Shown: positions 1 through 2,476 of the stretch, in pieces
Layout of the letters: each line of letters starts with the position of its first letter
How positions within the stretch are numbered: position 1 is the first letter of the stretch
Made by a program: the position numbers and the translations under genes
Notes under the pieces: generated by a model
The model's input: the letters and a program-made list of their open reading frames with translations, nothing else
What the model was told of the DNA's origin: nothing
Databases searched by the model: none
IMG/VR virus record: IMGVR_UViG_2548876700_000022
Span: 1-2,771 of that record
DNA: 2,771 bases
Strand: one strand, 5' to 3'
Origin: a virus
Lineage: Duplodnaviria > Heunggongvirae > Uroviricota > Caudoviricetes

Positions 1-267
1 ATGCGCAGAAAAGAGTCAAACGTTAGCAGTTTGCTGGAACTCACCAATTTTGAGGTAAGCTATTCTCTGGTTACCAATGAAGTTTACTTGTCTGCATCCT
101 TCACTGATAACATGGCCTGTATACCAAACTGGCCCTTACAAGAATTTCCGGATCAACTAATATGCATTTCTCGAGCAAAAGCTGTTGCCCTAATCGAAGA
201 GCTCCAGAAGACCATCAACTATATGGATGCAGGAATAGATCGAAGTTCAGGTAGCCTTCTCCAGTAG
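1..267 (+). CDS. hypothetical protein; possibly the 3' portion of a longer ORF entering from upstream of the window
   Basis: Open frame from window position 1 to TAG at 265-267 (88 codons). Same strand as, and 58 bp upstream of, the 326-973 gene, so it may be co-transcribed. Moderately AT-rich. No recognisable motif. The ATG at position 1 may be coincidental, since the frame may continue upstream. Confidence 0.35.
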   Translation: MRRKESNVSSLLELTNFEVSYSLVTNEVYLSASFTDNMACIPNWPLQEFPDQLICISRAKAVALIEELQKTINYMDAGIDRSSGSLLQ

Positions 268-325
268 CTGACGAGTTTTATAATAATTTGATATATATAT
301 CGTTCAATATTAGCGAGTACTTATA

Positions 326-973
326 ATGAGTGAATTTAGTAATCTTTTAAATAGCATACCTGGATGGTTATCCTCCTCCCTCACAGCTCTAGTTGGTACT
401 CTTATTGGCGGATGGTTTACCCTAAAAGGAGTGACCCAACAAGCTAAGCTGTCTAAAGTAGAGACAGAAAGAGAATCCCTTGAATTACAACTTTCAGTAT
501 TAAAAGGAGTTAAGGGAGAAGTTTTCACCCTAATCAATTTATATAATAAAAGGATGAAAACACACATTGATAATATAAAACCGGGACAAATGTTGATTCT
601 CACATTCCCTGTAGGGGATGATAATTTCACATTCTATGAGCAAAATGCGAATGTCATTGCAAAACTAAATGATTCTGCTAGAGACTCAATAATTAACATA
701 TACACATATTCACGCTCATTAATACAATCATTTAAAGGAAACAACAAACTCATTGAGGATTATGAAAAAATCCTTATTGGCATGGCAGACAATAACAAAG
801 ATAAAACCATGTATAAGAGATTACATGATGCAAAAATAAATGTAATGGTAGATTATGCTCAAGGGATAAAAAATATTGATGCAGAGCTAAGAGATGCAGT
901 CAATAAGGGATTCGACATTATCGACCAAGAAGTAAAGTCACTACAAATGAAATTAAACAAATTAGCTTCATAG
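326..973 (+). CDS. hypothetical membrane-anchored protein (single N-terminal TM helix plus helical/coiled-coil region); AT-rich cargo gene and candidate phage-exclusion/defence effector
   Basis: 648-nt ORF with ATG at 326 and TAG at 971-973. Residues about 11-33 (IPGWLSSSLTALVGTLIGGWFTL) form a hydrophobic helix. The rest is hydrophilic and rich in K/E/D/N with heptad-like spacing. The gene is very AT-rich and uses rare ATA/AAA/AAT codons, contrasting with the adjacent invertase. Weak SD-like GAGT about 8 nt upstream. Function is unknown from sequence alone. Confidence 0.7.
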   Translation: MSEFSNLLNSIPGWLSSSLTALVGTLIGGWFTLKGVTQQAKLSKVETERESLELQLSVLKGVKGEVFTLINLYNKRMKTHIDNIKPGQMLILTFPVGDDNFTFYEQNANVIAKLNDSARDSIINIYTYSRSLIQSFKGNNKLIEDYEKILIGMADNNKDKTMYKRLHDAKINVMVDYAQGIKNIDAELRDAVNKGFDIIDQEVKSLQMKLNKLAS

Positions 974-1022
974 AATGCTCCACTCCCTGTTCAATATTTT
1001 TACAAGCTTATCAGCCAACCGC

Positions 1023-1047
1023 AGCACGTTCTTGCATACGACGTGCT
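1023..1047. terminator. putative bidirectional intrinsic terminator hairpin between convergent genes
   Basis: AGCACGT (1023-1029) and ACGTGCT (1041-1047) are exact reverse complements, forming a 7-bp stem with an 11-nt loop. It is followed on the + strand by a T-containing tract (GGTTTCATTTAT). It sits in the 80-bp gap between the stop of the 326-973 gene and the stop of the invertase gene. Confidence 0.35.
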
Positions 1048-1053
1048 ACGGTT

Positions 1054-1608
1054 TCATTTATCTCCGACCGGAAACTTCTTATACAGTGTCGATATACCAA
1101 CATCATAGATGATCGCCACCTTCTGGCGAGGAACGCCTGATGCAATTAATCGTCCGGCCTGCTCCCATTGTTCTGGTGTAAGTTTGGGGCGACGTCCACC
1201 AATTCGTCCCTGTGCGCGAGCTGCTTCCAGTCCAGCTTTTGTTCGTTCAACAATCAGTTCACGCTCCATTTCAGCCAGGGCACCCATCACATGAAAGAAA
1301 AAGCGCCCCATTGGGGTACTGGTATCAATTGAATCCGTCAGACTACGAAAGTTGATGCCTCGTTCGCGCAACTCCTCCACCAGCACGACAAGATGCCGCA
1401 TACTGCGCCCCAGTCGGTCCAGTTTCCAGACCACCAGCGTGTCACCTGCCGATAATGTCCTGAGCAGCTTTTTCAGTCCTGGTCTGTCGGACTTTGTACC
1501 GCTTATCTTGTCTTCAAAAATCAGCTCACATCCTGCACAGTTCAGCGCATTACGTTGTAGATCGGTATTCTGGTCATTTGTTGATACACGTACATAGCCA
1601 ATAAGCAT
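1054..1608 (-). CDS. pin: serine recombinase, Gin/Pin/Cin/Hin-family DNA invertase
   Basis: Translation MLIGYVRVSTNDQNTDLQRNAL...DTLVVWKLDRLGRS...MGRFFFHVMGALAEMERELIVERT...GRIGGRRPKLT...IYDVGISTLYKKF has the hallmark small serine recombinase catalytic domain (Ser9 in YVRVST, codon at 1582-1584) and a C-terminal HTH. At 184 aa it matches the family size. I place the start at the ATG at 1606-1608 (MLIGY), preceded by a GGGGA SD-like sequence, rather than the ORF-track ATG at 1642-1644. The 12-codon extension MASFLLLPGEFN has no SD and is absent from family members as I recall them. The pin symbol is from memory of e14 Pin and is not verified. Confidence 0.93.
   Translation of the reverse strand: MLIGYVRVSTNDQNTDLQRNALNCAGCELIFEDKISGTKSDRPGLKKLLRTLSAGDTLVVWKLDRLGRSMRHLVVLVEELRERGINFRSLTDSIDTSTPMGRFFFHVMGALAEMERELIVERTKAGLEAARAQGRIGGRRPKLTPEQWEQAGRLIASGVPRQKVAIIYDVGISTLYKKFPVGDK
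1515..1590. promoter_or_regulatory. putative Fis-dependent recombinational enhancer embedded in the 5' coding region of the invertase gene
   Basis: In the Hin, Gin and Cin systems the Fis-bound enhancer lies within the first roughly 100 bp of the invertase coding sequence. The corresponding region here encodes VSTNDQNTDLQRNALNCAGCEL. Exact Fis sites are not determinable by eye, so the bounds are approximate. Confidence 0.35.
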
Positions 1609-1634: not shown

Positions 1635-2033
1635 ATGATGCCATTTGCTTGTTATTTCTTCATTTTCATAAACGTTGGTTTGGGAGAAGCGGCGAAAAGG
1701 GATGTGGGCACAGGAGATAATCAGATACCGGATATGGGAGCATTCGCTTCTGGTTCGGGATGGTTCAGGCTACCAGGTGGATATATTGTTCAGTTTGGCA
1801 CTTTTGCAGGAAACACGACCCGCTTTATCAGTGGACACTTCCCTATACCATTCCCTAATCAGCCGATGGTTTCAGTCAGTGTTATGTCTGATGCCGTTCA
1901 GTCAGACCCGTCGATTCCTGCCCCGCAGGTTTTGTCTGTAAATTTTGAACATATCAGTAATTCAGCGTGGCGTGTGGCAACCAGTGATATCTCACAGCAA
2001 TACAGATTCAGTTATATTTCGATAGGACGGTAG
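1635..2033 (+). CDS. side tail fibre protein, variable C-terminal receptor-binding segment (Stf/S-variable part); gene segment without its own start
   Basis: Open frame ending at TAG 2031-2033, 2 bp before the tfa start codon, which is the typical coupled Stf-Tfa arrangement. The functional coding part most likely begins at the crossover site (about 1663-1677) and is fused to a constant N-terminal part only after inversion. The ATG at 1635 from the ORF track falls in the invertase promoter region and is probably not a real start. The sequence is Gly/Ser/Thr-rich (GAFASGSGWFRLPGGYIVQFGTFAGNTTRF), consistent with fibre-tip domains. Confidence 0.6.
   Translation: MMPFACYFFIFINVGLGEAAKRDVGTGDNQIPDMGAFASGSGWFRLPGGYIVQFGTFAGNTTRFISGHFPIPFPNQPMVSVSVMSDAVQSDPSIPAPQVLSVNFEHISNSAWRVATSDISQQYRFSYISIGR
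1663..1688. other. site-specific recombination crossover site (gix/pix/cix-like), left boundary of the invertible tail-fibre segment
   Basis: TTTTCATAAACG-TT-GGTTTGGGAGAA is a 12-2-12 imperfect inverted repeat, with 8 of 12 positions palindromic around a central TT. It contains the AAAC..GGTTT core typical of Gin-family crossover sites. It lies about 55 bp from the invertase start codon and inside the tail-fibre reading frame, where it encodes FINVGLGE, as is typical for Mu G, P1 C and e14 P segments. Confidence 0.65.
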
Positions 2034-2035
2034 AA

Positions 2036-2476
2036 ATGCAGAAATATATTTTCAGTGCCGATAAAAATGCGTTTTTCCCTGTGGAGCTTAAAATCGCTTA
2101 TCAGGAATCCGGCGAATGGCCCGATGATGGAATCGAAATTGACGACACTGTTGCTGCCGAATTTATGAAGGAAGCACCAGAAGGAAAATACAGAGGTGTC
2201 ATCGACGGAATGCCTGCATGGATTGATATTCCACCGCCAACTCATGAGGAACAAATTGCCGCAGCCGAACTGAAAAAGCAGCAATTGATTAATCAGGTCA
2301 ACGAATACATAAACAGTAAGCAATGGCCTGGTAAAGCGGCGATTGGTCGCCTGAAAGGTGAGGAACTGGTGCAATATAATTTGTGGCTGGATTATCTGGA
2401 CGCACTGGAGCTGATCGATACTTCCGGTGCGCCAGATATTGAATGGCCTACGCCTCCGGCAGTTCAGGCCAGATGA
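2036..2476 (+). CDS. tail fibre assembly protein (Tfa/U family chaperone)
   Basis: 146-aa ORF with an AGGA SD-like sequence 8 nt upstream of the ATG at 2036. It follows the fibre segment immediately. The C-terminus LWLDYLDALELIDTSGAPDIEWPTPP matches the conserved C-terminal motif of Tfa-type chaperones and resembles the C-terminus of the convergent ORF at 2448-2771. Confidence 0.85.
   Translation: MQKYIFSADKNAFFPVELKIAYQESGEWPDDGIEIDDTVAAEFMKEAPEGKYRGVIDGMPAWIDIPPPTHEEQIAAAELKKQQLINQVNEYINSKQWPGKAAIGRLKGEELVQYNLWLDYLDALELIDTSGAPDIEWPTPPAVQAR

Follow-up and report, generated by a model that had tools for sequence, protein, structure and literature searches.

The window analyzed here, i.e., the complete stretch of 2,771 nucleotides from an IMG/VR virus record (IMGVR_UViG_2548876700_000022, Caudoviricetes), represents the end of a temperate phage genome. 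It comprises two small genes, referred to below as the 88-aa and the 215-aa gene, a candidate terminator, a serine invertase gene, and a set of tail-fibre genes (Table 1). Related loci used for comparison are cited by their numbers (L001, etc.).

Table 1. Features of the 2,771-nt window
Feature	Position	Strand	Remarks
88-aa ORF, complete CDS	1-267	+	88 codons, TAG at 265-267; promoter and LexA box located outside the window
Spacer	268-325	+	58 nt, AT-rich (24% GC), between the 88-aa and 215-aa genes
215-aa cargo gene (WP_001288816.1)	326-973	+	Swappable cargo located between the 88-aa and invertase genes
Hairpin	1017-1053	+	13 bp, interrupted, T-rich tail after it; candidate terminator of the 88-aa/215-aa unit; -22.6 kcal/mol, z -2.83
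Serine invertase, Pin/Gin type	1054-1608	-	Resolvase and HTH_7, E 1.6e-51; convergent with the 88-aa/215-aa unit
Tail-fibre C-terminal segment, alternative	1635-2033		Gp53-like_C match
Tail-fibre assembly gene 1	2036-2476	+	Convergent with assembly gene 2
Tail-fibre assembly gene 2	2448 to beyond 2771	-	Convergent with assembly gene 1

In the RefSeq annotation of E. coli O55:H7 CB9615, the first gene corresponds to WP_001253101.1 (88 aa, hypothetical) and the second one to WP_001288816.1, both being located directly after yfhH and ahead of pinE and the tail genes. Positions 1-1000 of the window were matched in 125 out of 5,426 complete E. coli genomes with identities between 95% and 99.7%, in every case on the chromosome. 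An earlier reading of the window, made from the sequence only, had described an ORF open from base 1 and located 58 bp upstream of the 326-973 gene on the same strand, which is correct. It had also attributed a shared AT-rich composition to both genes. This is correct only in part, the GC content being 33.3% for the 215-aa gene, 42.7% for the 88-aa gene, and 48.5% for the rest of the window. The Rfam search of the window yielded no match.

The ORF at positions 1-267 is a real and complete small gene, and the ATG at base 1 is the start used throughout its family. This ATG is the annotated start in RefSeq, and HMM searches with the protein gave an end-to-end match to PHROG 17793 (function unknown; residues 1-88 vs. 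positions 1-88 of the 91-position profile, E 2.3e-43), which was also matched by the homologues from the phages Fostie and YeP1. No model of Pfam (E <= 1), NCBIfam, or PADLOC (E <= 1) matched the 88-aa or the 215-aa protein. Homologues of the 88-aa protein, 87-91 aa in length and starting at the equivalent place, were found in Escherichia, Salmonella, Citrobacter, Klebsiella, Enterobacter, Yersinia, and Ewingella. A HMMER search over 1.84 billion representative proteins recovered only 33 clusters for this family, all of them stand-alone proteins of about 88-aa size and none of them a fusion. Where dS was unsaturated, dN/dS amounted to 0.04-0.08, and the gene is thus under strong purifying selection.

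The earlier reading had regarded this ORF as possibly truncated by the window edge, and the frame is indeed open in E. coli for 53 further codons (159 nt) upstream of base 1, to an ATG, with a second in-frame ATG located 12 nt upstream of base 1. Moreover, some metagenome gene callers report extended forms of 136-145 aa, several of them 140-145 aa, that run through the promoter and the LexA box. A true protein of ~141 aa whose N-terminus was cut off by the window edge is nevertheless scarcely credible, because in-frame stops immediately precede the Met of the SEN34 homologue, the nearer upstream ATG is not conserved (TCGGAT in L026), and the extension contains the gene's own promoter, i.e., the conserved -35, -10, and LexA box. 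In homologues, the extension is missing or interrupted by stops, and the family alignment as well as the PHROG profile begin at the Met encoded at base 1. In many RefSeq E. coli genomes carrying the sequence, the ORF was left unannotated by PGAP. Furthermore, remnants of 45 aa showing 80% identity to residues 3-47 and lacking the LexA box were observed in L074-L076 (6001-6135), where the other strand contains a second match, which is weak; these are probably decayed or rearranged copies of the gene.

Comparison with CB9615 revealed a ~41-kb E. coli prophage residing in yfhL, in which the 88-aa gene occupies the first position inside the attL end. The prophage is flanked by an 18-nt direct repeat, AATTGTGATATGTGTGAA, representing the att core, one copy of which lies within a 5' fragment of yfhL (L001 7773-7790) and the other within the intact yfhL adjoining a tyrosine integrase gene (L082 32625-32642). 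The distance from attL to the start of the inward-reading 88-aa gene is 210 nt. In excised or phage forms (SEN34, Fostie, YeP1, BUCT709, and nine IMG/VR contigs, one of which, L018, is the E. coli phage itself), the end or start of the integrase gene was found 324-476 nt upstream of the 88-aa gene, across attP, the distance in YeP1 being 1312 nt. Four integrase types, in either orientation, occur beside the gene, and many IMG/VR prophage predictions start exactly at it. Accordingly, the att-proximal place of the late/tail arm is constantly held by the 88-aa gene.

In CB9615 (L001 7744-7791, L082 32595-32855), the insertion affects the 5' end of yfhL, the 18-nt core corresponding to approximately codons 11-16. 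At attR, the prophage supplies a substitute promoter and N-terminus for yfhL (MSLLITKRCI vs. MALLITKKCI), and at attL the original yfhL promoter and the first 16 codons remain, pointing toward the 88-aa gene. Several distant family members (L099 1337-1603, L100, and L101 3001-3258) have no LexA box and directly follow a tyrosine integrase gene of the same strand or overlap its end. They may thus be transcribed together with the integrase gene and be connected with integration or excision.

The regulatory region of the 88-aa gene was read from near-identical relatives (L001, L018, and L020, with 97-99% protein identity). In close relatives, a TTGACT -35 element and a LexA box are located just upstream of the base-1 ATG (~-62 to -13), the box being CTGTACATAATTACAG in the three near-identical loci and lying 12 nt from the ATG. 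The order in CB9615 is TTGACT (7939-7944), a 17-nt spacer, GACCAT, and then ACCTGTACATAATTACAGTC (L001 7969-7988), whose core, CTGT-N8-ACAG, is that of a LexA box. The -10 element of E. coli (GACCAT) is weak, and a simple promoter scan did not list this promoter. The strict box pattern occurred only once across the CB9615 prophage and its flanks.

To what extent this operator is a family trait was evaluated for 54 related loci with >=100 nt of upstream sequence. The pattern CTG-N10-CAG was detected within 70 nt of the start in 51 of them, compared with 3.2% of random 70-nt windows taken from the same loci, and the three loci without a box are the 45-aa remnants mentioned above. TTGAC was located <=40 nt upstream of the box in 46 of the 51 boxed loci. 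In total, 24 distinct box sequences were obtained, scoring between 14 and 18 of 20 against the consensus TACTGTATATATATACAGTA. Family-wide, the box starts 1-3 nt past the -10-like hexamer and ends 11-19 nt ahead of the ATG. An alignment of 13 diverse upstream regions showed CTGT, CAG, and TTGA/C to be invariant or nearly so, with freely varying flanking positions, and the arrangement of TTGAC(T/C), 17 nt, -10-like hexamer, and box to be conserved. Even members of ~30% identity keep a near-consensus box (L096, TACTGTATATAAAAACAGTA; L097 and L098, TACTGTATATAAAAACAGGC), and a few distant members do not possess it, namely L099-L101, located directly after the integrase gene, and L094 and L095, featuring other upstream sequence. 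Since the box was present in 51 out of 54 related loci vs. 3% of the control windows, the 88-aa gene is very probably repressed by LexA and induced in the SOS response. The L096 member (3001-3267; box 18/20) resides within ~3 kb of a SRAP (YedK-like) gene and a umuC/umuD-like gene pair, and hence in the company of further SOS genes.

The second gene encodes a protein whose model (pLDDT 82) shows a moderately hydrophobic N-terminal helix (Kyte-Doolittle 19-residue maximum of 1.35) followed by long helices, and which matches generic four-helix bundles only. The spacer in front of it is devoid of terminator-like structure (z +1.72), and a consensus promoter scan of its plus strand, performed on the near-identical L001 copy, detected no promoter for the 215-aa gene. 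Given the unstructured spacer, this missing promoter, and the hairpin after the 215-aa gene, co-transcription is the most economical assumption, and both genes are probably transcribed together from the putative LexA-controlled promoter in the lineage of the window. The hairpin was not flagged by a simple terminator scan, which required a loop of 3-8 nt and was run on L001, a sequence divergent from the window at this place.

The proposal that both genes form a two-gene cassette was examined by means of their distribution. The 88-aa gene was present in 129 complete E. coli genomes and the 215-aa gene in 80, all 80 having the 88-aa gene in front. Wherever the 215-aa gene was present in E. coli genomes and phage-type loci, the 88-aa gene preceded it by 58-60 nt. 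Conversely, the 215-aa gene was lacking in 49 of the 129 genomes and in about 50 of the 60 IMG/VR loci carrying the 88-aa gene, occurring in only nine of the latter (the search for loci with the 88-aa family yielded 3 loci in species-representative genomes and 60 in IMG/VR). Members of the 215-aa family with 63-75% identity are also widespread in Enterobacterales beyond these phages. Among 15 loci from Enterobacter, Dickeya, Providencia, and Klebsiella (64-73% identity), homologues were found in unrelated contexts, and no gene of the 88-aa family was located within 4-5 kb of them. The Enterobacter homologue resides in an islet beside HigBA, where the similarity to the window is confined to the coding sequence and the spacer is dissimilar; the Dickeya homologue belongs to an ICE-like region with CcdAB; and that of Klebsiella lies beside an integrase gene in an element.

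Because each gene occurs without the other, the pair is not an obligate sensor-effector system. From the proposed cassette, adjacency, the 58-nt gap, probable co-transcription, and co-inheritance within the lineage stand, and obligate pairing does not. The suggested sensor role, or membership in a known two-gene system, found no counterpart among the PADLOC, Pfam, and NCBIfam models. It is therefore very unlikely that the two genes constitute a dedicated system of sensor and membrane effector, e.g., a defence or abortive-infection pair. The common strand, the short spacer without a terminator, the consistent precedence of the 88-aa gene, and the exchange of both genes between phage lineages as one block (see below) would fit such a system; against it stand the many 88-aa genes followed by an unrelated gene or directly by the invertase gene, the 215-aa homologues of four other genera lacking an 88-aa relative, the absence of PADLOC matches for both proteins, and a break of homology with sister prophages at position 282, i.e., between the two genes.

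As a solitary gene in mobile contexts, the 215-aa family was also encountered in L009-L014, L085-L087, L088-L090, and L091-L093. In a Providencia prophage (L088-L090 4001-4657), the homologue is located 3' of cI (S24 type) and a gene with an HSDR_N domain, corresponding to the position of rexAB in lambda. This location gives a hint that the family may be expressed in lysogens and serve in exclusion or defence.

Judging from the related loci, the 215-aa gene is one of many interchangeable cargo genes occupying the slot that the 88-aa gene and the gene of the tail-fibre invertase delimit. It was the next gene in nine IMG/VR loci and in L001. At the same place, a gene for a 281-284-aa protein was found in six IMG/VR loci as well as in L002 and L007, the invertase gene itself within ~30 nt in about 20 loci, DinI on the same strand 11-44 nt downstream in seven loci including Fostie and YeP1, and small ORFs on the minus strand in others. 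Further cargo comprised AT3 acyltransferases (O-antigen) with or without an SGNH domain, a hexapeptide acetyltransferase together with HtrL/YibB, a PagK-like protein, a DUF1353 protein, a lipoprotein, and an IS3 element. Many of the cargo genes are separated from the 88-aa gene by 300-650 nt or are oriented against it. Since PADLOC gave no match for four alternative cargo proteins and the identifiable cargo is mostly of the lysogenic-conversion type, a classification of the slot as a 'defence hotspot' was not adopted.

Pairwise comparisons delimited the exchanged segments. In relation to a sister prophage carrying a 282-aa cargo at the same yfhL site, homology covers positions 1-282, breaks off, and resumes at position 1342 inside the invertase gene. 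Cargo-less phages align with the 88-aa gene and the invertase gene, positions 326-973 being absent. Compared to a Salmonella-type phage (L029 6100-7000), a block from ~100 to ~1000 of the window is 92-98% identical, and its flanks reach 66-74%; the spacer and the 215-aa gene therefore moved as a unit with the 3' two-thirds of the 88-aa gene. The left crossover is thus located inside the 88-aa gene, indicating that this gene serves as a homology anchor for cargo exchange. The alternative cargo of 281-284 aa (L002 3133-3978, L007 4569-5417, L019, and L021-L025) belongs to the same yfhL prophage lineage and starts 305 nt past the 88-aa gene, and its protein had no match in Pfam or PADLOC. Along with this cargo, an invertase remnant of 85-116 aa is present.

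Variable 'moron' cargo slots are known from prophage ends by tail-fibre invertases, namely mcrA/pin in e14 and com-mom/gin in Mu. Similarly, the variable slot described here adjoins the invertase/tail-fibre module on one side and the prophage end on the other; unlike in e14 and Mu, its att-side border is a conserved small gene under putative LexA control. A search of the literature did not find a description of such an att-side, LexA-controlled small gene bounding a cargo slot.

The 88-aa protein (9.9 kDa) is acidic, with a pI of 4.6 (family median 4.9), possesses no hydrophobic segments, and is a soluble, cytoplasmic phage protein. Its fold was confidently predicted to consist of three beta-strands and a C-terminal helix, residues 1-11 being disordered in the model. 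Since the predicted monomer has little hydrophobic core, the working form is probably dimeric or oligomeric, with another protein as its binding partner. The predicted fold weakly resembles the COMM domain, known from eukaryotic COMMD and bacterial COMMD-like proteins, with a sequence identity of 8-20%; however, the N-terminal helical HN domain of COMMD proteins is missing, and the Pfam COMM model did not match. A PDB sequence search returned nothing better than E 0.44, and a Foldseek search of BFVD with the model gave no match at E <= 0.001. A study on the origin of COMMD proteins warns that the likeness of CT584/Cpn0803 and Whirly/Pur-alpha to COMM is superficial only (PMC13392464), and the same proteins were among the structure matches of the 88-aa protein. 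Its COMM likeness is a resemblance and not a membership.

SOS-controlled small proteins have been described for other phages. Tum of coliphage 186 is an antirepressor-DinI fusion expressed from the p95 promoter, which features a LexA site over its -10, and in the tumA-tumB arrangement of PSP3, TumB represents DinI and directly follows tumA (PMC3121763). The 88-aa family shares with Tum (186) and TumA-TumB (PSP3/Fels-2) the encoding of a small phage protein outside the immunity region, with a LexA box close to the (in the 88-aa family, putative) promoter -10. As for TumA-TumB, DinI is encoded immediately 3' of the family gene in the seven loci that include Fostie and YeP1, a place occupied in the window by the 215-aa gene. 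In contrast to the three strands and helix predicted for the 88-aa protein, the N-terminal sequence of Tum/TumA looks helical by eye, and the genomic positions differ, the 88-aa gene residing beside attP and Tum of 186 near cos and the replication genes. Homology to Tum/TumA was rejected, as PHROGs 189, 1993, and 37919 showed no cross-hits with PHROG 17793 at E <= 0.1.

The antirepressors GfoA, GfhA, and GftA of Salmonella Gifsy phages are protein-binding dimers of 70-90 aa, which are directly controlled by LexA and encoded in an operon with a DinI homologue (PMC3121763). The 88-aa protein corresponds to them in size class and LexA-box layout, whereas the gene order is reversed in Gifsy, with dinI first, and the Gifsy repressors are short and non-cleavable, compared to a LexA-family repressor in the prophage of the window. 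Homology to GftA (PHROG 4847) was likewise dismissed, the hhalign probability for a diverse 88-aa family alignment vs. GftA being 0.3%; SEN34_55 belongs to PHROG 340. Regarding the cognate repressors, the prophage of the window encodes a 207-aa 'LexA family protein' (CI, WP_000049986.1) and YeP1 a LexA-like one, and Fostie possesses a CI of 130 aa and SEN34 a short repressor. An antirepressor function could not be deduced from the repressor type, since the family was found with both cleavable and short repressors. Besides its LexA-boxed 88-aa gene, SEN34 harbors a Gifsy-type dinI, a 77-aa gene, and a 200-aa gene in the nin region (L081 13614-14849), and this phage may therefore contain two separate SOS-controlled small-protein loci.

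Based on the comparative sequence data, the window most probably starts with a complete, LexA-controlled, att-proximal phage gene that is followed by swappable cargo. The more comprehensive explanation, in which this gene additionally specifies an SOS-triggered modulator, is favored with somewhat less certainty. In a healthy lysogen, LexA bound downstream of the putative sigma-70 promoter (TTGACT, 17-nt spacer, -10-like hexamer) would keep the 88-aa gene off, and DNA damage would switch it on through RecA-stimulated cleavage of LexA. The transcript would then probably extend across the 58-nt spacer, include the 215-aa gene, and stop at the hairpin, and the 88-aa gene would at the same time represent the constant flank and recombination anchor for cargo exchange. 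Its acidic, probably dimeric or oligomeric product would bind a protein target. By analogy with the LexA-controlled small phage proteins Tum/TumA and GfoA/GftA, the product would most likely be triggered by the SOS response and modulate either prophage induction or the RecA/LexA response, as an antirepressor-like or DinI-associated binder.

With respect to the individual functions, it is possible, albeit tentative, that the 88-aa protein is a LexA-controlled antirepressor that acts on the repressor of its own or a co-resident prophage and triggers induction, as Tum/TumA and GfoA/GftA do. The regulatory layout and size class agree with this, as do the DinI genes directly downstream in Fostie/YeP1-type members, resembling PSP3 tumA-tumB, and the short Fostie CI without a cleavage domain. 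Moreover, antirepressors are known that act in trans on non-cognate repressors, and the phage of one of them, FsoA, has a cleavable repressor (PMC3121763). The LexA-like, cleavable repressors of YeP1 and of the window's prophage speak against it. Further objections are that sequence homology to known antirepressors was not found, that SEN34 has its own Gifsy-type operon of dinI and a small gene, and that the 88-aa family tracks no single immunity module. A modulator of RecA and the SOS response acting together with DinI is a more doubtful candidate. Still less likely, the 88-aa protein is an accessory factor of integration or excision, or its gene is mainly a leader, with the SOS promoter driving the cargo and the attP position mattering rather than the product. 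The gene always adjoins attP and the integrase gene, whatever the integrase type, its copy in L099-L101 directly follows the integrase gene and has no separate promoter, and tightly spaced next genes such as DinI and the 215-aa gene would inherit LexA control. On the other hand, ordinary excisionase genes are present beside the integrase gene in these phages, strong purifying selection and the confidently predicted, conserved fold point to a working product, and many cargo genes are 300-650 nt away or oriented oppositely. Returning to the SOS-triggered modulator, a speculative generalization would be that PHROG 17793 comprises previously unrecognised LexA-controlled effectors with a COMM-like dimer fold, possibly the third sequence-unrelated solution for SOS coupling in Enterobacterales after Tum and GfoA/GftA, encoded by a gene at the attP edge that places cargo such as DinI or the 215-aa gene under DNA-damage control.

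The gene was already contained in databases as encoding a hypothetical protein, and SOS-controlled small phage proteins are known as a kind. The family described here is unrelated to these in sequence, differs in its predicted fold, and is characterized by its place next to attP and to a cargo slot, and the literature search retrieved no paper that mentions WP_001253101.1 or WP_001288816.1 or comments on the 88-aa gene. This unnamed family features a conserved putative LexA operator and a fixed place on the attP side in temperate phages of E. coli, Salmonella, Citrobacter, Klebsiella, Enterobacter, and Yersinia, irrespective of integrase and immunity type. If the LexA control holds true, these prophages add a DNA-damage-inducible gene to the SOS regulon of their hosts, and in the lineage of the window probably also the putative membrane protein of 215 aa. 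The carriers include EHEC/EPEC strains such as O55:H7, O103:H2, and O45:H2. As a candidate for a new antirepressor or SOS modulator, the 88-aa gene bears on antibiotic-triggered prophage induction.

The two borders of the slot, i.e., the 88-aa gene and the invertase gene, could furthermore be used to mine accessory genes. The invertase gene is at the same time part of a Pin/Gin-type invertible tail-fibre switch covering positions 1054-2771 of the window, which consists of the invertase, the alternative C-terminal segment, and the two convergent assembly genes. A 20-nt crossover site, AAACGTTGGTTTGGGAGAAG, was located at positions 1670-1689, and its inverted partner (L001 11513-11532) lies 1.84 kb away in CB9615, past the end of the window.
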